Part shown: positions 10,376-20,037 of the stretch, piece after piece | How positions within the stretch are numbered: position 1 is the stretch's first letter | Layout: each line of letters begins with the position of its first letter | Source: Escherichia coli | GTDB taxonomy: Bacteria; Pseudomonadota; Gammaproteobacteria; Enterobacterales; Enterobacteriaceae | Direction: 5' to 3' (one strand) | DNA length: 64,000 nucleotides | NCBI RefSeq assembly: GCF_036507355.1 | Contig: NZ_AP027877.1 | Translations under genes and position numbers: made by a program | Notes under the pieces: model-generated | What the model was told of the DNA's origin: nothing | Database searches by the model: none | The model's input: only the letters and a program-made list of their open reading frames with translations

Positions 10376-10414
10376 AGCACGTACTGTCAGAGAAATCAAC
10401 TCTCTGACAGTACG
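10376..10414. terminator. 13-bp perfect inverted repeat cgtactgtcagag / ctctgacagtacg immediately 3' of yncL
   Basis: Read directly; no strong U-tract, so function uncertain. Confidence 0.35.
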
Positions 10415-10758
10415 CAAGATCTTCTCATACTCTCCAGGTTTACAACATTATCCTTAATATTTACTTCTTTTTGCTGGCATCTACATTGAAATGAGTAGAA
10501 AACATCCCCCTACTGTCGTCTATACAAACAGCTTACTGATTCAAAGGGAATCTTGTTTTCACATTTTTCTATCATGAATACTTTATACGCGCGGGAGTCT
10601 ATAAATGCTTTATACTTTCAAGGAATAACGTAAATATAAAAAGATGGCGTGAAGTATATGCATGGCAGGATGTTTGCAACCTCCTTGATGACGCTGCCCC
10701 ATTGAAATTGCAAACCCCGCCCTGGTTATCTTGCCCATTTATCATGCAAAACAGATAA

Positions 10759-11568
10759 TTATAGGCCTCTGAATACCTCAGAAAGATTGAATTTTTTATA
10801 GTCCCTCTCTTGAATATTTCCATTTGATATCAATCGATTCATCTCTTCAACAAAATAATTTATATCATCACACTTGTTATTATCCGGAAGATCTGAGTAG
10901 TTATAATTCCACCATTTTATTCTCAACAGTTCATCAATAACATTTGAATCAAACCTAAATCTGATTATTTTTGCAGGAACTCCTGCAACTATGGCATATG
11001 GGGGCACATCTTTGGTAACAACGGAATTGGCAGCAATAACAGCACCATCACCTATTGCGATGCCACCTTTCAATACAACATCATTTCCTATCCAGACATC
11101 ATTTCCTATAATCGGATTTTCAGGTTTGGTAATGAATGGTTTCAATGTCCAGCTACGTTCAAACTCACTCATAGCAAACTTATCAAATTCACCGTTATAA
11201 GTCATCATGTGAGTAGTAAAACGATTCAAAGGATGATTTCCACCCATTATTTTTACATTTGATGCAATACTACAAAATCGACCTATACGTATATTCCCTG
11301 AAAAATGACAGGTCGGAAATGAAAAAGCGCCGACACTGGAGAAATTTTTTACAGGCATTGTTGAATATTCTTCAGCAATAACATTATCTTCAATTGTTAT
11401 CTTGTCACCTTTTGAGAAAAGAAATAAATTCCTTTCTTTATACGACTTCTTCCCCTTATGATTTAAAAAGATTTTATTATCCATACAAAACTCAAAGTGT
11501 TTTTTCGTCCATCTGAAGGTAAGGGTTTTATTTTTATCTTCCGTGAATTTGTACAATTGAACTTTCAT
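10759..11568 (-). CDS. hexapeptide-repeat acyltransferase, XAT-like (Vat/CatB-type xenobiotic acetyltransferase family)
   Basis: 269-aa ORF with ATG at 11566-11568; left-handed beta-helix hexapeptide repeats (IGNDVWIGNDVVLKGGIAIGDGAVIAANSVVTKDVPPYAIVAGVPAKIIRFRF) then WW-containing C-terminus (LRIKWWNYNY); strongly AT-rich compared with flanks. Confidence 0.75.
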   Translation of the reverse strand: MKVQLYKFTEDKNKTLTFRWTKKHFEFCMDNKIFLNHKGKKSYKERNLFLFSKGDKITIEDNVIAEEYSTMPVKNFSSVGAFSFPTCHFSGNIRIGRFCSIASNVKIMGGNHPLNRFTTHMMTYNGEFDKFAMSEFERSWTLKPFITKPENPIIGNDVWIGNDVVLKGGIAIGDGAVIAANSVVTKDVPPYAIVAGVPAKIIRFRFDSNVIDELLRIKWWNYNYSDLPDNNKCDDINYFVEEMNRLISNGNIQERDYKKFNLSEVFRGL

Positions 11569-11777
11569 TGTTAATACTTCTACTTATAAATTATTAATTT
11601 AATAACGATACTCTAAAGCCTTATGCTAATCAACTGTGACAGGATGAAAAATCGCCATCAAACATTTAGCCTAATTTTTACGCTAGTTATTAATGTAATC
11701 ATTCTAATACTTAACCGCCATTAAACTCAGAACCTAAAACGATAGTGGCCGTCCTATAACAGCCACTAACATCTAAC

Positions 11778-13202
11778 TTAATGTTTAACCATGACGTGGC
11801 GGACGACGGTGTAATCCTCCAGCCCATAAAGTGACATATCCTTGCCGTAACCAGAAAGTTTCTGCCCACCGTGCGGCATTTCACTTACCAGCATGAAATG
11901 GGTATTGACCCAGGTACAACCATATTGCAGCCGTGCACTGACGCGATGCGCCCTGCCCACATCTTTCGTCCATACCGAAGATGCAAGTCCGTACTGGCTG
12001 TCATTCGCCCAGTTTACCACCTGTTCTTCGTTGTCGAAGAGCGTAACACTCACTACTGGACCAAATACCTCTTTTTGCACGATGGCATCGTCCTGTAATG
12101 CGCCAGCCAGCAGCGTCGGCGCATAGTAATAGCCATTACCCTTGCGCTTTTCACCGCCAGTGATCACTTTGATGTGCCCTGTCGCTTTCGCCTCTTCTAC
12201 TGCCTTGCTGACGCGTTCGAGATGCGCCAGCGAGCTTAAAGGCCCAAGCTCCGTAGACTCGTCATCCGGCGCACCCGATTTTAACGTTGCCACCGCAGCA
12301 CCGAGTTTTTCCACCAGCGTATCGTAAATGCCTTTTTGCGCGTAGATCCGACAGGCCGCAGTACAATCCTGTCCGGCATTGTAATAGCCAAATGTACGTA
12401 CACCTTCGACCACTGCTTCAATATCCGCATCATCAAAAACAATCACTGGCGCTTTGCCACCAAGTTCCATATGAGTATGCTTAATGGAGGGCGCGGTATG
12501 GCTGATGATGTGCTCGCCGGTGGCGATAGAGCCCGTCAGCGACACCATCCGCACTTTGGGATGACCGGTCAGCGGATCGCCCACCGTTTTGCCTCTGCCA
12601 AACAGTACGTTAATCACGCCTGCCGGGAAGATATCTTTCGCCAGCTCTGCCAACTTCAACGCGGTCAGCGGGGTAATTTCTGATGGTTTAAGCACTACGC
12701 AGTTCCCTGCCGCCAGCGCCGGAGCAAGTTTCCACGCTGCCATCATCAGCGGATAATTCCACGGTGCGATAGAAGCCACGACCCCCAACGGATCGCGACG
12801 GATCATCGAAGTATGACCTTCAAGATATTCACCTGCCGCCAGACCATTCAGACAGCGCGCCGCACCCGCGAAAAAGCGAAAAACATCGACAATCGCCGGG
12901 ATTTCATCATTGAACGCACTATGCAGCGGTTTGCCACAATTACGGGACTCCAGTTCGGCAAAAACCTGACCATTTTCTTCGATTACATCAGCCAGTTTCA
13001 GCAGACATTCCGCACGCACTTTCGGCGTGGTTTGCCCCCATTCGGCAAATGCTGCATCTGCCGCGCGCACAGCAGCATCGACCTGCTCTGCGGATGCCTC
13101 GGCAATCTCCAGTAAAACGTCCCCCGTTGCCGGATTATAGACAGGCTGTTTTTCCCCTTCGCCGCTAACCAGTTCTCCGTTAATCAGTAACTTATGTTGC
13201 AT
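11778..13202 (-). CDS. patD: gamma-aminobutyraldehyde dehydrogenase
   Basis: 474-aa [30 protein letters not shown]...; aldehyde dehydrogenase catalytic motifs. Confidence 0.9.
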
Positions 13203-13223
13203 AGCATATTCCTGTATCAGTGG

Positions 13224-14018
13224 TTATTGACCATTGTCGCCTTCGCGGGTTAGCCACCAGGCCCCCAGGATCGGCAAGGTTGTTACCAACATAACCAGCA
13301 GTGCCACCACGTTAGTTACCGGTACATCACGCGGTCGCCCAAGCTGATTGAGCAACCACAACGGTAACGTTCGTTCATGACCTGCCGTAAAGGTCGTAAC
13401 GATGATTTCATCGAACGACAAGGCAAACGCCAGCATTCCTCCTGCCAGTAACGCCGAACTGAGATTCGGCAACACTACGTAGCGGAAGGTTTGCCAGCCA
13501 TTGGCCCCAAGATCCATTGACGCCTCAACCAGACTCCACGAGGTGCGGCGAAAACGGGCGATGACATTGTTAAACACCACAACTACACAAAAAGTCGCAT
13601 GACCGACCACGATGGTGAAAAATCCCGGCTCCAGATTGATGGTTTTAAAAGCGGTTAATAGCGCCAGACCAGTGACAATGCCCGGCAGCGCAATGGGCAG
13701 CAGCAGTAACAGCGAAATGGCGTTTTTGCCGAAAAAGTCTCGTCGCCACAGCGCGGCAGCTGCAAGCGTCCCTAACACCAGCGCGATTAATGTCGCCAGC
13801 GCCGCCACTTTAAGTGACAGTGTCACGGCATCAAGAATATCACTACGCTGTGCTGCCACGCTAAACCAGCGCAGCGTCAGGCCTTGCGGTGGAAAACTAA
13901 ACGCCGCATCTTCAGTGTTAAACGCATAGGCGGCGATAATCAGGATAGGAAAATGTAGGAAAACTACGCCGCCCCAGGCCGCCAGTTTGAGGAAAAACGG
14001 TGCGCGTTCAGAGTGCAT
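13224..14018 (-). CDS. ydcV: ABC transporter permease
   Basis: 264-aa hydrophobic ORF; part of ydcSTUV cluster. Confidence 0.85.
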
Positions 14019-14949
14019 CGAACGCTCCCAGACGTTTCACGAACGCCAGGTACAGTGCGATGAGAACAATCGGCACAAGGGTGAATGCCGCCGCCATCGG
14101 CATATTGCCAATCGCCCCCTGCTGGGAATAAACCATATTGCCGATAAAATATCCTGGAGGGCCAACCAGTTGCGGGACGATAAAATCACCCAGTGTGAGT
14201 GAGAAGGTAAAGATAGAGCCAGCGGCAATACCCGGGATCGCCAGCGGCAGCACCACATAGCGAAAGGTTTGTCGTGGACGCGCACCGAGATCAGCCGACG
14301 CCTGCAACAATGACGGCGGCAAACGCTCAAGCGCCGCCTGCACGGGCAGGATCATGAACGGCAACCAGATATAGAGAAACACCAGAAAGCGCCCCAGCCC
14401 GGAAGTTGACAGCGTATTGCCGCCCACCGCAGGTAATGTAAGGAACGCAGTCAGCAGTGGTTCCAGCCCAAGATGTTGTAAAAACCACTGCGCCACGCCA
14501 TCTTTTGCCAGCAATAACGTCCAGGCATAGGCTTTAACAATGTAGCTCGCCCACATCGGCAACATTACCGCAATATAAAAAAACGCTTTCATTTTCCCGC
14601 TGGTATAGCGCGCCATATACCACGCCATTGGAAAAGCCAGAATGGCGCTGGCGATAGTGACTGCCACAGCCATAGTCAGCGTGCGGAGAATGATGTCGTA
14701 ATTCGCCGGATTAAACAGCGCACGGATATTCGCCAGCGTCAGTTCCGGCGTTACCGACATGGTGAAATCGTCAAAAGTATAAAATCCCTGCCATAACAGT
14801 GTCAGCAGCGAGCCGAAATAGACAATGCCAAACCACATTAGCGGGCCAAGCAGCAGTAAAAACAGCCCCAGCCCCGGATTACGCCAGAAGAAACCGGACA
14901 CCTTACCCAGACCTGGACGTGAAGGTGATTGCAATACGTTCATCGCCAT
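14008..14949 (-). CDS. ydcU: ABC transporter permease
   Basis: 313-aa hydrophobic ORF; overlaps ydcV start. Confidence 0.85.
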
Positions 14950-15963
14950 TCACCTCTCCTCAACCAGCGGCACCATCACATCACGCGACCAGGAAACCAT
15001 CACCTGTTGTCCGGGCGTGAGCGTGGCAGGCAGTTCTTCGCCTGTCATATTGGCCTGACTCACCAGCAGTTTTTCACCGCCGTTCAGTCTCAGTTCAAAA
15101 CGGGTCGCCGCGCCCTGATATTGCACCGCCTGGATCGTGCCATTAGCCTGCACTTCGCCGGGGGTGTTGAAGCGGATATGTTCCGGTCGCAGGGCGAAGC
15201 TTCCCGTCATGCCGCAAAGATTCTCGGCCATTAGCGGATCAAAAACGTTGGATGTCCCGACGAATCCGGCAACAAACGGCGTGCGCGGGCGCATATAGAG
15301 ATCGCGCGGGGAATCGACCTGCTCAATGCGTCCATTATTGAAAACCGCCACACGATCGGACATCGATAACGCTTCGCCCTGATCGTGGGTAACGAAGATA
15401 AAAGTGATACCGAGAGACTGTTGCAGTTTTTTCAGTTCCAGCTGCATCTGCTCACGCAATTTGAGATCCAGTGCGCCGAGCGGTTCATCCAACAGCAATA
15501 CGCGCGGTTCATTCACCAATGCTCTGGCGATAGCAACCCGCTGGCGCTGACCACCAGAAAGTTGTGACGGTTTACGTTGCTGTACAAACCCCAACGCCAC
15601 TTTCTCCAGCGCCTCTTGCGCCATTGCGTGCCGCTGCTTTTTATTCACGCCTTTGACCATCAGCCCATAGGCGACATTGTCAAGAATCGACATATGCGGA
15701 AATAGCGCGTAGTCCTGAAAGACAGTATTCACGTCCCGCTCCCACGGTGGCAGATTGCTGGCGGGTTTACCAAAGATAGAGATAGCCCCGCCGGAAAGCT
15801 GTTCGAAGCCAGCAATCAGGCGCAGGCAGGTGGTTTTGCCGGAGCCGGACGGCCCCAGCATAGAGAAGAACTCACCATCTTTTATCGCAATACTGACGCC
15901 ATCTACTGCGCGCACGTCACCGTACAACCGCGAGACGTTGTCAAACTCCACTGCGTACGTCAT
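14950..15963 (-). CDS. ydcT: ABC transporter ATP-binding protein
   Basis: 337 aa; Walker A GPSGSGKTT, signature LSGGQRQR, Walker B LLLDEP. Confidence 0.9.
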   Translation of the reverse strand: MTYAVEFDNVSRLYGDVRAVDGVSIAIKDGEFFSMLGPSGSGKTTCLRLIAGFEQLSGGAISIFGKPASNLPPWERDVNTVFQDYALFPHMSILDNVAYGLMVKGVNKKQRHAMAQEALEKVALGFVQQRKPSQLSGGQRQRVAIARALVNEPRVLLLDEPLGALDLKLREQMQLELKKLQQSLGITFIFVTHDQGEALSMSDRVAVFNNGRIEQVDSPRDLYMRPRTPFVAGFVGTSNVFDPLMAENLCGMTGSFALRPEHIRFNTPGEVQANGTIQAVQYQGAATRFELRLNGGEKLLVSQANMTGEELPATLTPGQQVMVSWSRDVMVPLVEER

Positions 15964-15980
15964 AAAGCACCCCAGCGAAG

Positions 15981-17126
15981 TTAGCGACCGCCCATAATGG
16001 CAATGTAATCCTGCGTCCAGCGACTGTAGGGAATAAACTTGCCCCCTTCTGCTATAGGCGTTTTCCAGAAGGCGATTTTGTCGAAATAGTTAAAACCGTT
16101 GGTTTCACAACCTTTTTCGCCTAATAACGGACTGGCTTTACACCCTTGCGGCACTACCGGTAACGAGCCAAACCAGGCCGCCACATCGCCCTGCACTTTT
16201 GGCGTTAATGACCAGTTCATCCATTTGTAGGCGCAAACCGGATGTTTCGCTTCGCTATGCAGCATGGTGGTATCAGCCCAACCGGTAACACCCTCCTTCG
16301 GGAAAACGGTAGCAACAGGCTGGCCTTCGGCTTTCAGGGCGTTGGCCTGATAGGGCCAGGCACTGGAAGCAACCACACCCTCGTTTTTGAAATCGCTCAT
16401 TTGCACGGTAGTGTCATGCCAGTAGCGATGGATCAAACTGTGTTGAGCGCGCAGCACTTTCAGCACCGCCTGGTACTGTTCTTCGGTGAGTTGATACGGA
16501 TCGCTGATGCCCAACTGCGGCTGAGTGGCTTTAACGAACAACGCAGCGTCCGCAATATAGATAGGGCCATCATAAGCCTGAACGCGGCCTTTATTGCTCT
16601 TGCCGTCCGGCAGATTTTGCTCAACAAAAACCACTTGCCAGCTATCCGGCGGCGTCGGGAAGGTTTTAGTGTTGTACATCAGCAGGTTCGGCCCCCATTG
16701 GTAAGGTGTGCCGTAAACTTTGCCGCCAACGTTAAACCAGTCGCCTTTAACCACGCGCGGATCGAGCGTTTTCCAGTTGGGAATCAAGGCGGTATTAATC
16801 GGCTGCACGCGTTTACCCATAATCAAACGCAGCGAGGCATCGCCGGACGCCGTGACCAGATCGTAACCTCCTTTGGTCATCAGGCTGACCATTTCATCGG
16901 AAGTCGCGGCAGTTTTAACATTCACCGCGCAGCCTGTCTCTTTTTCGAACTGCGTTACCCAGTCGTATTGTTTATCAGTTTGTCCGCGTTCGATGTATCC
17001 CGGCCAGGCGATAATATCCAGTCGCCCTTCCGGTTTATCTAAATTGGTAGGCGGTTCGGCGGCGTGAGCGGTCATTATTGTCATGCTGAGCGCACACAGG
17101 CTGCTGCGGGCAAATGTCTTGCTCAT
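15981..17126 (-). CDS. ydcS: periplasmic substrate-binding protein (polyamine-type)
   Basis: 381-aa ORF with signal peptide; first gene of ydcSTUV-patD cluster. Confidence 0.85.
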   Translation of the reverse strand: MSKTFARSSLCALSMTIMTAHAAEPPTNLDKPEGRLDIIAWPGYIERGQTDKQYDWVTQFEKETGCAVNVKTAATSDEMVSLMTKGGYDLVTASGDASLRLIMGKRVQPINTALIPNWKTLDPRVVKGDWFNVGGKVYGTPYQWGPNLLMYNTKTFPTPPDSWQVVFVEQNLPDGKSNKGRVQAYDGPIYIADAALFVKATQPQLGISDPYQLTEEQYQAVLKVLRAQHSLIHRYWHDTTVQMSDFKNEGVVASSAWPYQANALKAEGQPVATVFPKEGVTGWADTTMLHSEAKHPVCAYKWMNWSLTPKVQGDVAAWFGSLPVVPQGCKASPLLGEKGCETNGFNYFDKIAFWKTPIAEGGKFIPYSRWTQDYIAIMGGR

Positions 17127-17370
17127 AAGGTCTTACTCCTGTCGTAATTAATTGTTCAGCCGCCGTGCCGTAAAAATATCTCCTTGTTTAACCATAGACG
17201 GCGGCTTGCAGGCACACCTTCGCCCCTGAGAAAATTTAATCAGGTTGTGAGCTACCGCGCATTATGCCGTCTGTAAGGTTATCTTCTGGAGTATAGACAA
17301 GGAGTTAGGAAATATGACTGCTATTCGAAATTCATATTACCCAACCTAAGAGGAATTAAATTAAACGCTA

Positions 17371-18777
17371 TTACAGCCGTTCTTGAATAAGTTTGCCTAA
17401 TTGTTTTACCGCCTGTTCTTCACGTTCTCCCCACTGCCACGCGGTATTAAAACGAAAAAAACGTGACCAGTTTTCACCGGTAGAAAACATTTTACCCGGC
17501 GCAATACTGATATGATGCGTCAGTGCCGCCAGGCTTAATTCGCCGGCATCTAACGGCTCGGGGAGCTCCAGCCAGAGAAAATAACCGCTGTCATTATGAT
17601 GAATTTTCACTTCCGCAGGCAGATAACGCAGCAGTGCCTGCCAGGCACGTTGTTTACGTTCCGCAAGCTGGCGACGCAGGCGACGAAGATGGGCGTCGTA
17701 TCGGCGCGTGGAAAGGTAATCCACCAGCGCAAGCTGCATCGGTGAGCTGGTGGAAAGCGTACTCATCAACTGCAATCGTTGAATTTTACGTGCATGTTTT
17801 CCGGCGGCGACCCAACCAATACGAAAACCAGGCACCAGACATTTCGAAAACGAAGAGCAATGCAAAACGCCATCGTGGCGATCCCACGCTTTCGCAGGCA
17901 GCGGTTTTTCCCGTCCAAAATAAAGTTCGCTGTAAACGTCATCTTCAATCAGCGTTACGTTGTACTGATTGAGCAACGCCACCAGTTGTGCTTTTTTTTG
18001 CGGCGTTAAGGTAAATCCGAGTGGATTCTGGCTATTAGTCATCAGCCAGCACGCTTTCACCGGATACTCCTGCAACGCCAGTTCCAACGCCTGAAGATCG
18101 ATCCCTTCTTTAACATCCGTCGCCACCGATAACGCCTTCAGCCGTAGCCGCTCCAGCGCCTGCAACGCACCGTAGAAACAAGGATTCTCTACTATCACCC
18201 AATCGCCCGGTTCAGTTACCGCTTGCAAACTGAGGTTTAATGCCTCTAACGCCCCGGCAGTAATGACAATTTCATCAGGAGAAATGGTGATCCCCTGTAA
18301 GGCATAGCGACGAGCAATAGCCTGACGCAGTTCTGCGTTTCCTGGCGGTAAGTTTTCAATCACGCTCATCGCTGTGGCGGTTTTGCTTACCTGCGCCAGC
18401 GAGCGGTTTAGTTGTTGGAGGGGGAAAAGTCGCGGGTCGGGAAAGGCCGAGGCAAACGGAACGACCGACGGATCGCGACTGGCCTGCAACATATCAAAAA
18501 TATAAGTGTTGATATCGACTGCTTCATCTCGAGTGACTGGAATGACTGGCGCTTTCGGCATTTTTATTGCCTGTGGCGCAACGTAATAACCCGACTGCGG
18601 TCGTGCGATAATATATCCCTGACTTTCGAGCAACTGATAGGCATGGCTGACAGTCATAAAGCTCATGCCAGAAAGCGCCACCTGGTCACGCAACGAAGGC
18701 AAACGATCGCCGGGTTGCCAGATACCCGACGCAATCTGCTCGCGTAATTGTTCTGCAAGCTGCTGGTATTTTTTCAT
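17371..18777 (-). CDS. ydcR: MocR-type regulator (GntR HTH fused to PLP aminotransferase-like domain)
   Basis: 468-aa ORF MKKYQQLAEQLREQIASGIWQPGDRLPSLRDQ... Confidence 0.85.
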   Translation of the reverse strand: MKKYQQLAEQLREQIASGIWQPGDRLPSLRDQVALSGMSFMTVSHAYQLLESQGYIIARPQSGYYVAPQAIKMPKAPVIPVTRDEAVDINTYIFDMLQASRDPSVVPFASAFPDPRLFPLQQLNRSLAQVSKTATAMSVIENLPPGNAELRQAIARRYALQGITISPDEIVITAGALEALNLSLQAVTEPGDWVIVENPCFYGALQALERLRLKALSVATDVKEGIDLQALELALQEYPVKACWLMTNSQNPLGFTLTPQKKAQLVALLNQYNVTLIEDDVYSELYFGREKPLPAKAWDRHDGVLHCSSFSKCLVPGFRIGWVAAGKHARKIQRLQLMSTLSTSSPMQLALVDYLSTRRYDAHLRRLRRQLAERKQRAWQALLRYLPAEVKIHHNDSGYFLWLELPEPLDAGELSLAALTHHISIAPGKMFSTGENWSRFFRFNTAWQWGEREEQAVKQLGKLIQERL

Positions 18778-18855
18778 TATCGAATCGTAATTATGTGCAG
18801 ATGATTCGGCAGTCTATATCAGTTGTTAAAAATGACAACTTTTCGTTAACTGTAA

Positions 18856-19293
<438 letters not shown>

Positions 19294-19317
19294 GTCATTA
19301 ACCTTTTTAATTGGCGA

Positions 19318-19494
19318 TTAACTCAAACCGAGTTGTTTCAGGATTGCTTTACGCAATGGTTCTTTAATCTCATCGCAGGGGTGACGCGGCATGACACTGC
19401 GCCTCCCATGAAACCTGAGTTTCAAATGGTTGCTGCCATTCGCTACATCGACGCCCTGAGATTCGAGCCAACGTCTGAACTCGCTTTGTTTCAC
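19318..19494 (-). CDS. hicA: HicA mRNA-interferase toxin
   Basis: Hand-translated 58 aa from GTG: MKQSEFRRWLESQGVDVANGSNHLKLRFHGRRSVMPRHPCDEIKEPLRKAILKQLGLS; directly upstream of hicB. Confidence 0.75.
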   Translation of the reverse strand: MKQSEFRRWLESQGVDVANGSNHLKLRFHGRRSVMPRHPCDEIKEPLRKAILKQLGLS

Positions 19495-19715
19495 ATCGCC
19501 TCCCTGCCGCTGAGTATATCAACAAAGTAAACATTAGTGTTTACCTCCGTGTGTAATTTGCTCGAAAATAGCACTAAATCGCCGCAACGGCAGAATGCAA
19601 TGCAAAATCAGGAAGGAAGATTCCAGAATTTCTTTGCGCTAATTTGCAAAACTGAATAATAACCTCAAGAAACGATCGGCATCATAGCGGCAAAAGGTAA
19701 GAAAAAGGTGGCAGG

Positions 19716-19946
19716 ATGTTTACGAAGGCGTTATCGGTTGTCTTATTAACGTGTGCGCTGTTCTCAGGACAACTCATGGCAGGGCACAAAGGACATGAAT
19801 TTGTGTGGGTAAAGAATGTGGATCATCAGCTGCGTCATGAAGCGGACAGCGATGAATTGCGTGCTGTGGCGGAAGAGTCGGCGGAAGGTTTGCGCGAGCA
19901 TTTTTACTGGCAAAAATCGCGCAAACCAGAAGCGGGACAACGTTGA
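19716..19946 (+). CDS. yncJ: small secreted protein (DUF2554)
   Basis: 76-aa ORF with signal peptide MFTKALSVVLLTCALFSGQLMA. Confidence 0.75.
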   Translation: MFTKALSVVLLTCALFSGQLMAGHKGHEFVWVKNVDHQLRHEADSDELRAVAEESAEGLREHFYWQKSRKPEAGQR

Positions 19947-19956
19947 GTCGTTTGAT

Positions 19957-19987
19957 GCCGGATGCGGCGTGACGCCTTACCCGGCAG
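19957..19987. repeat. REP (repetitive extragenic palindrome) element
   Basis: gccggatgcggcgtgacgccttacccggcagg matches the E. coli REP consensus; between yncJ and rlhA. Confidence 0.7.
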
Positions 19988-20037
19988 GCAATATCATGCA
20001 GATTCAATGAGTGGTGAGTAACCAGAAAACTGGCGTT

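Follow-up and report, generated by a model that had tools for sequence, protein, structure and literature searches.

Do ydcR, the transporter genes ydcS, ydcT, ydcU and ydcV, patD and the acetyltransferase gene behind it, which follow one another on one strand in Escherichia coli, work as a single module, or is a shared strand all that some of them have in common? We considered this question for a 64,000-nt stretch of E. coli DNA (contig NZ_AP027877.1; hereafter the window), in which the locus lies at 10.7-19.3 kb. A sequence-only reading of this DNA had taken the genes for a self-contained module for uptake and oxidation of a polyamine-type substrate, headed by its own MocR-type regulator. 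We consider it probable that there are three separate units on the shared strand: the ydcSTUV-patD operon, an autoregulated ydcR and an acquired acetyltransferase islet. Independent transcription units, which that reading had itself named as counting against it, are what the sequence and a published electrophoretic mobility shift assay (EMSA) point to, and its regulator and acetyltransferase parts would accordingly appear to fail.

The genes were placed with the help of the open reading frame (ORF) listing and of the RefSeq record for the nearest complete genome (99.1% identity), and were identified by Pfam and NCBIfam family searches with curated equivalog cut-offs. Their order on the minus strand, on which all features below lie unless stated otherwise, is hicB, ydcR, ydcS, ydcT, ydcU, ydcV, patD and a CatB-related acetyltransferase gene. 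The product of ydcR (17371-18777) is a MocR-type regulator with matches to the GntR winged helix-turn-helix (wHTH; E=1e-14) and to Aminotran_1_2 (E=1.5e-33). That of ydcS (15981-17126) is a periplasmic substrate-binding protein of the PotD/PotF family, which scores 812 bits against the YdcS equivalog NF041888 (cut-off 725). YdcT (14950-15963) is an ATP-binding cassette (ABC) ATPase with a C-terminal TOBE domain (Pfam ABC_tran and TOBE_2) and is PotA-like at 357 bits, under the equivalog cut-off of 482, and YdcU (14008-14949) and YdcV (13224-14018) are BPD_transp_1 permeases that Pfam and family searches find to be PotB/PotH-like and PotC/PotI-like, respectively. YdcSTUV has the architecture of a type I ABC importer of the PotABCD/PotFGHI (polyamine/opine/phosphonate) family, with a binding protein, an ABC_tran/TOBE ATPase and two BPD_transp_1 permeases encoded in one operon. 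The final operon gene, patD (also ydcW or prr; 11778-13202), encodes an NAD-dependent gamma-aminobutyraldehyde dehydrogenase, an activity characterised in the literature; the protein scores 1035 bits against TIGR03374 (cut-off 909.3) over residues 2-473 of 474, and is 99% identical to PatD of K-12.

The identities, positions and common strand that the sequence-only reading gave to these genes are borne out by the ORF listing and the RefSeq annotation, and the overlap of 11 nt that it noted between ydcU and ydcV is exact. Its statement that the frames overlap or adjoin holds from ydcS to patD (17 nt between ydcS and ydcT, 0 nt between the abutting ydcT and ydcU, -11 nt between ydcU and ydcV, 21 nt between ydcV and patD) but not for ydcR-ydcS, which are 244 nt apart, or for patD and the acetyltransferase gene, which are separated by 209 nt. 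A tight ydcSTUV-patD unit, as it had proposed, is what the spacing indicates and what the literature treats as one operon, and ydcR and ydcSTUV-patD are a long-annotated, already known E. coli locus.

The block is widespread. Of 5426 complete E. coli genomes, 5376 match a 9-kb query over the block across 80% or more of the query. A scan for YdcS relatives with one genome per species gave 528 loci, and our Enterobacteriaceae counts refer to the best 80 of these (86-98% identity), which include Escherichia, Citrobacter, Kluyvera, Enterobacter, the Klebsiella oxytoca group, Raoultella, Kosakonia and Leclercia. The order and orientation ydcR-ydcS-T-U-V-patD were the same in 77 of the 80, and the remaining three are interrupted by contig ends; the arrangement is therefore real and ancient within the Enterobacteriaceae. 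Over positions 11000-20000 of the window, the nearest of the complete E. coli genomes is 99.1% identical and most are 95-99% identical, so the lineage of the window is not closely represented in that collection.

YdcR boxes and the ydcR-ydcS spacer

What does YdcR control? It has the MocR architecture (PF00392 at residues 3-66 and PF00155 at residues 141-445), its SFSK lysine motif aligns with the lysine motif of LysN that forms the Schiff base with pyridoxal 5'-phosphate (PLP), and intact-protein mass spectrometry has demonstrated its PLP binding (PMC9321722). Upstream of ydcR, the 23 species with a short upstream spacer share operator-like repeats (ATAACAGTT / CTGATATA), in which ATAACAGTT is invariant and an inverted copy, CTG(A/T)TATA, lies 25 nt downstream, and other genera have a third box, a direct copy cAGAAACAG about 21 nt upstream of ATAACAGTT, which has been lost in Escherichia. 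In the window, footprinting and matching place an operator-like inverted pair at 18816-18856, made up of ATTACAGTT at 18848-18856, which overlaps the hicB stop, and CTGATAT at 18816-18824, 25 nt apart. All 77 loci have such boxes 5' of ydcR, where exact 7-mers occur at 6.75 per kb (within 150 nt) versus 0.34 per kb in the ydcR-ydcS spacers. The sequence-only reading had expected the binding site of the regulator in the ydcR-ydcS spacer, at 17127-17370; no YdcR-type box is conserved in an alignment of 77 such spacers, and none is present in that interval of the window. A CTGTTAT match in the spacers of 8 of 76 loci was set aside as an operator, as the key positions of the block vary between genera. 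One-mismatch matches to the box number 21 in the whole window versus 13 +/- 3 expected, and we judged a palindromic near-match, AGAACAGTTAT at 63612-63622 within a 1174-aa ORF, to be due to chance.

Published binding data agree with this distribution. Pfanzelt et al. (2022) found that purified YdcR shifts a fragment of the ydcR promoter, PRydcR, from 50 nM, and that the 244-bp ydcR-ydcS intergenic fragment, their negative control, is not shifted; they drew ydcSTUV-patD with a promoter of its own (PMC9321722). When mapped to the window, their primers delimit PRydcR to 18690-18892, within which the operator-like pair falls, and the spacer probe to 17126-17370; the negative control is thus exactly the interval that had been singled out for mapping YdcR sites. 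Likewise, a comparative regulon reconstruction assigns to YdcR the gene ylaC in E. coli and cydAB-like genes in other gamma-proteobacteria, and never ydcSTUV or patD. The region upstream of K-12 ylaC has the YdcR box twice (AACTGTTAT-N17-TCTGTTAC), in agreement with that prediction, and 62 of 78 loci have a cytochrome-bd-type oxidase pair (Cyt_bd_oxida_I and II) that runs divergently from ydcR. This divergent operon, which encodes a CydA-like protein of 466 aa and a CydB-like protein of 336 aa in most Enterobacteriaceae, is gone in Escherichia, where hicAB stands in its place (window 18816-19500; loci L006 and L092).

From the position of the boxes, the unshifted spacer, the reconstructed regulon and the LysR regulator that accompanies the transporter genes outside the Enterobacteriaceae (see below), YdcR probably controls itself and other genes rather than ydcSTUV-patD, and the role of module regulator that it had been given is not upheld. 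ydcR looks like a transcription unit separate from the operon. We suggest that YdcR is an autoregulated PLP-binding MocR regulator with its operator on its own 5' side, a side that in most Enterobacteriaceae would be shared with the divergent cytochrome-bd-like oxidase operon and that hicAB, among other genes, would have taken over in Escherichia. That ydcR adjoins the transporter genes may go back to insertion of the cassette in an ancestor of the Enterobacteriaceae and not to a pairing of regulator and target. For annotation, the footprints and the published gel shift hold the lesson that a MocR regulator next to a downstream operon does not imply control of that operon.

If not by YdcR, how is the operon expressed? 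The ydcR-ydcS spacer (17127-17370), which we take as the probable promoter and leader region of ydcSTUV-patD, is 157-446 bp long in 76 loci and is lengthened in two further ones by inserts of 2.5 and 4.3 kb. In the 77-spacer alignment its conserved blocks are each present in 66-75 of the 77, except block D (CCGTCTAT-type), which is present in 49. The blocks in the window are TGTCTATACT at 17290-17299, which resembles a sigma-S-type -10 element with C at -13 (70 of 77); AATGCGC-N6-TCACA at 17246-17263, which is CRP-like (73 of 77); block D, CCGTCTAT, at 17194-17201; a block beginning TACGGCA at 17166-17172; a Shine-Dalgarno sequence, ACAGGAGTA, at 17134-17142; and, within 17127-17370, an ATA-N9 element whose resemblance to the consensus suggests a Nac site. 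Block E, ACGGCAcGGCTGCCGC (window 17150-17172), about 30-45 nt 5' of the ydcS start, forms a small palindrome, and in most genera it has a sigma-54-like GG-N10-GC. We considered it as a sigma-54 -24/-12 element and rejected this, as GG-N10-GC fails in Escherichia, whose version, ACGGCACGGCGGCTGA, breaks both it and the palindrome.

We infer the functional labels of these blocks (sigma-S -10, CRP, Nac) from consensus, conservation and published genetics: ydcSTUV-patD is known as a single operon that belongs to the RpoS, cAMP-CRP and Ntr/Nac regulons, and expression of ydcS and ydcU drops about 7-12-fold in cya and rpoS mutants. A single transcription unit running from ydcR to the acetyltransferase gene should lack internal promoter and terminator signals, and the conserved promoter-like blocks in the 244-bp spacer thus argue against one. 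Further support for the spacer as the promoter region of the operon comes from Salmonella enterica (locus L090, 8001-10985), in which ydcSTUV is absent and ydcR is directly followed by patD, with a short spacer that retains two of the ydcS promoter blocks, the CRP-like one and CCGTCTAT. The four transporter genes appear to have been cleanly deleted, so that patD now stands behind a remnant of the ydcS promoter region. We propose that ydcSTUV-patD would be driven by its own promoter in the spacer, under global starvation control through the sigma-S-type -10, the CRP-like site and the Nac-like site.

Could YdcR nevertheless be a dedicated PLP- or effector-sensing regulator of a self-contained putrescine/polyamine uptake-and-oxidation module, with its operator in the spacer? 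MocR regulators such as GabR do control amine and gamma-aminobutyric acid (GABA) catabolism, and the main text of PMC9321722 loosely places the bound region "upstream of a putrescine transporter", although the spacer probe was the negative control of that very study and the spacer has no conserved YdcR-type box. The adjacency and co-orientation kept in 77 of the 80 Enterobacteriaceae loci, and the ydcR-patD adjacency in Salmonella, would suit such a regulator, but the orthologous cassette of Serratia, Pseudomonas, Lonsdalea and Rahnella has a LysR regulator, YdcR orthologues are elsewhere paired with cydAB-like genes, and the published regulon reconstruction is without ydcSTUV or patD. Also in its favor is that no terminator-like hairpin follows ydcR in the window, while PatA, which is required for putrescine, is unlinked. 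On balance we regard a dedicated regulator as improbable.

Several points do weigh against the three-unit arrangement that we prefer. No stable hairpin follows ydcR in the window (dG -3.1, z=+0.8), although several other genera have one, so that transcripts begun at the ydcR promoter, which YdcR controls, could run on into ydcS and link the two. The unshifted spacer probe represents one in-vitro condition, and ydcR stays beside patD even in Salmonella, an adjacency that a functional link would also explain. A generic promoter scan flagged none of the conserved spacer blocks, so that the promoter assignments depend on footprinting, the promoter, CRP and Nac labels reflecting consensus resemblance and conservation; the counts of the generic sigma-70 and terminator scans were no higher than in shuffled sequence, except for the hairpin after patD. 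Lastly, in the searchable literature we found no direct YdcS transport or binding data, whether for putrescine, spermidine or any other ligand.

The islet behind patD

Does the acetyltransferase gene belong to the operon? Alignment with K-12 reveals an AT-rich accessory islet of 1324 bp (10453-11776) directly after the patD stop codon, with a GC content of 31-37% versus 52-55% for the operon. Its flanks are an imperfect 11-bp direct repeat, TAAACATTAAG at 11777-11787 and TAAATATTAAG at 10453-10463. The repeat takes in the last patD codons and the stop (window 10453-11787), and no integrase or transposase is present. The acetyltransferase gene (10759-11568; Hexapep Pfam match and RefSeq annotation) is found in 1150 of the 5426 complete E. 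coli genomes (21%) and is absent from K-12.

The islet brings with it a hairpin followed by UCGUUUU at 11743-11768, 10 nt past the patD stop, which the terminator scan picked out and which folds with dG -20.3 kcal/mol and z=-5.5, and a promoter scan flagged a promoter-like site before the acetyltransferase gene at 11590-11617. The hairpin is likely the intrinsic terminator of ydcSTUV-patD in this strain, to judge from its stem and U-run, and operon transcription would probably stop there. At this end of the locus, too, a single transcription unit is thus at odds with an internal signal. An ancestral hairpin with a 16-bp stem, shared with K-12, where it lies between patD and the convergent yncL, is now downstream of the islet (10379-10415, no strand assigned; dG -28 kcal/mol, z=-4.7).

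The acetyltransferase itself, of 269 aa, is extended at its N terminus by about 60 aa, and its best NCBIfam matches are under cut-off: TIGR03308, a model for hexapeptide-repeat transferases connected with phosphonate metabolism, at 131 bits (cut-off 202), Vat at 125 (300) and CatB at 106 (350). A search of plasmid proteins found no close mobile copy, the nearest plasmid-borne relatives being at most 44% identical, and the sole match of more than 60% identity in that search was a chromosome-sized record. The sequence-only reading had described an acetyltransferase islet immediately downstream on the same strand; the strand is right and it is a true islet, as its presence in 1150 of 5426 genomes attests, but the 209-nt gap and the strong hairpin suggest a separate unit. 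The acetyltransferase gene is an independently acquired islet, and we picture it as a horizontally acquired single-gene islet that would have its own expression signals.

The cargo of YdcSTUV

The locus is highly conserved, stationary phase, nitrogen limitation and colonisation of the gut all induce it strongly, and it carries a "putrescine transporter" label without proof. That label goes back to a database prediction, and papers either say "putative" or cite the transporter database. What, then, does YdcSTUV import? We propose that YdcS would capture a small amine in the periplasm, that YdcT2-YdcU-YdcV, of PotABCD type, would import the cargo, and that cytoplasmic PatD would oxidise the aminoaldehyde of the pathway, 4-aminobutanal, to GABA.

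YdcS has Pfam matches to solute-binding families only (SBP_bac_1 and SBP_bac_8, E ~1e-22), and the solved structures nearest to it are PotF, SpuD, SpuE and PotD. These results bear on the view, carried by the K-12 annotation as a name, that YdcS is primarily a periplasmic synthase of short-chain poly-3-hydroxybutyrate (cPHB) of the alpha/beta-hydrolase type. Polymerase activity and a loss of about 30% of outer-membrane cPHB in a ydcS mutant have been reported (Dai and Reusch, in the account given in PMC3709699), but YdcS matches no alpha/beta-hydrolase family in Pfam and its operon context is that of an ABC importer and an aldehyde dehydrogenase. As its primary role we therefore hold synthesis of cPHB to be very unlikely; it may yet be a moonlighting activity.

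The structure PDB 6NLP is YdcS from residue 23 on, that is, after the AHA/AE site, and is described as a closed state; literature searches for a YdcS ligand or for a paper on 6NLP turned up the structure only as a basis for modelling. If YdcS and YdcV formed the inner-membrane route for double-stranded DNA in natural transformation on plates, one would not expect YdcS to be a typical PotD/F-type binding protein for small molecules, solved in a closed state. The ydcS and ydcV mutants do transform 6.7- and 9.5-fold less, respectively, and the operon is RpoS-dependent (reviewed in PMC6135910), but the effect of the ATPase mutant is minor (PMC6135910), the constant coupling to aminoaldehyde dehydrogenases is irrelevant to DNA uptake, and the phenotype could be indirect, for instance through polyamine or envelope physiology. 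We give this role even less credence than that of a polymer synthase.

For a small-molecule cargo, the pocket is informative. YdcS and PotF are 24% identical, and an alignment at that level, anchored on invariant W37, Y40, W244, PKEG and D278, shows W37, Y40, W244 and D278 to be kept, with the changes S38P, D39G, S87D, E185Y, D247Q and F276W. The four acidic residues of the PotF pocket (D39, E185, D247 and D278) are thus reduced in YdcS to D278 alone. The YdcS pocket residues are identical in five distant orthologues, including those of Pseudomonas, Serratia, Lonsdalea and Cronobacter.

The wider distribution of the genes provides a second line of evidence. In Serratia, Pseudomonas, Lonsdalea and Rahnella (YdcS 76-86% identical) the cassette reads LysR - PatD paralogue - YdcS-T-U-V - PatD and is without a MocR gene, whereas the Enterobacteriaceae loci, including E. 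coli, are without the LysR regulator and the second PatD paralogue. The similar identity of this LysR-aldehyde dehydrogenase-YdcSTUV-PatD cassette across orders suggests horizontal spread. YdcS of E. coli is 74-81% identical to that of several Pseudomonas species, which is unusually high for a binding protein. More distant YdcS relatives (41-59% identity) in a representative library lay on short metagenomic contigs that were uninformative as to gene context; one of these, of 10 kb, encodes an ATPase, a substrate-binding protein and two permeases without an aldehyde dehydrogenase.

In two of these lineages a spermidine dehydrogenase (SpdH) gene is directly 3' of the patD orthologue, namely in Serratia marcescens (L086, 14525-17616) and Pseudomonas nitroreducens (L095, 14939-16801). 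The two proteins, which are 61% identical to one another and match PDB 7D9F with E=1e-245, both have the twin-arginine (Tat) signal MxITRRDFLNG, and in Serratia a tri-haem cytochrome c with a Sec signal comes next. Public annotations of these genes read only "NAD(P)/FAD-dependent oxidoreductase" or "protoporphyrinogen oxidase". SpdH yields 1,3-diaminopropane and 4-aminobutanal / delta-1-pyrroline, the latter being the PatD substrate, and the position of its gene next to patD thus ties the cassette to polyamine breakdown. In the SpdH lineages the aldehyde-producing chemistry appears to be periplasmic, with PatD-type dehydrogenases as the sole cytoplasmic enzymes of the cassette. No aminotransferase was found in the cassette in any lineage examined.

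The description of the locus as a polyamine-type module consequently fares unevenly: the metabolic link to polyamines, through PatD and the SpdH context, holds, but the substrate is a predicted label and YdcS is without three of the four PotF acidic residues. Nor is the module self-contained, as had been claimed, since the first step for putrescine, PatA (YgjG), is encoded elsewhere and the cassettes examined include no aminotransferase.

Is it possible that what YdcSTUV imports is the aldehyde itself? An aminoaldehyde made outside the cytoplasm (4-aminobutanal / delta-1-pyrroline, perhaps 3-aminopropanal), rather than a polyamine, would then be taken up, and PatD would detoxify and assimilate it, the source being the Tat-exported periplasmic SpdH or, for E. 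coli, host or microbial amine oxidases in the gut. In every lineage examined the cassette has one or two aminoaldehyde dehydrogenases and never an aminotransferase or oxidase. The Tat signal of SpdH and the Sec signal of the Serratia tri-haem cytochrome c put aldehyde production in the periplasm, and the PatD-type enzymes are without a signal peptide; yet 1,3-diaminopropane, which SpdH releases as well, is just as plausible a cargo, and SpdH is absent from three of the five contexts outside the Enterobacteriaceae and from all Enterobacteriaceae loci. An aromatic box (W37, Y40, W244 and F276W) with D278 as the one remaining acid of four fits a ligand with a single amine, but the Asp gained at the position of PotF S87 could restore a second anionic site, and the mapping relies on an alignment at 24% identity. 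In addition, delta-1-pyrroline may cross membranes unaided, and we know of no ABC importer for aminoaldehydes, which also weighs against this reading. We consider it unlikely, though less so than control of the operon by YdcR. If true, YdcSTUV would be the first ABC importer for an aminoaldehyde or cyclic imine, with PatD in the same operon oxidising the cargo at once, and it would explain the cassettes with PatD and no aminotransferase, the SpdH neighbors and the loss of three of the four acids with which PotF clamps diamines.

A di- or polyamine (putrescine, spermidine or 1,3-diaminopropane) is the cargo that we favor, at somewhat short of an even chance; the aminoaldehyde or delta-1-pyrroline itself has a clearly smaller share of our confidence, and another small amine takes up the remainder. 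The Serratia and Pseudomonas contexts give a shortlist of YdcS ligands, namely 4-aminobutanal / delta-1-pyrroline, 1,3-diaminopropane, spermidine and putrescine, and identification of the ligand would fill a 25-year-old gap in the map of polyamine use and nitrogen scavenging in E. coli.

Comparison with known systems

The islet-borne acetyltransferase has the hexapeptide-repeat left-handed beta-helix domain of the XAT class (CatB, Vat). It differs from that class in scoring far under the family cut-offs and in its N-terminal extension of about 60 residues, and it comes without evidence of an antibiotic substrate.

YdcSTUV shares the architecture of PotFGHI and PotABCD, and Pot proteins are the best family matches of all four of its proteins. 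All four, however, are far under the Pot equivalog cut-offs, the ydc gene order begins with the binding protein, and an aldehyde dehydrogenase gene is joined into the operon. With the PatA (YgjG)-PatD putrescine pathway the locus has in common an equivalog of its aldehyde dehydrogenase, but PatA is absent from this locus and from the orthologous cassettes examined, and the locus alone cannot turn putrescine into GABA. A further known system is the SpdH pathway described in Serratia marcescens and in Pseudomonas aeruginosa: SpdH is encoded directly after the cassette patD in Serratia and P. nitroreducens, whereas the window has the transporter-plus-PatD core only.

Like the MocR regulators GabR, PdxR and TauR, YdcR combines a GntR wHTH with an aminotransferase-like PLP domain, keeps the lysine motif and binds PLP. 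It is not an equivalog of PdxR (269 bits versus a cut-off of 320) or of GabR (124 versus 600), and the genes predicted to be under its control are ylaC and those of a cytochrome-bd-like oxidase rather than an operon for amine catabolism. Its probable operator resembles MocR operators in its short direct and inverted repeats, two to three helical turns apart, and the ancestral ydcR, divergent from its target operon, had the arrangement typical of MocR genes, the divergent target having been lost in Escherichia.

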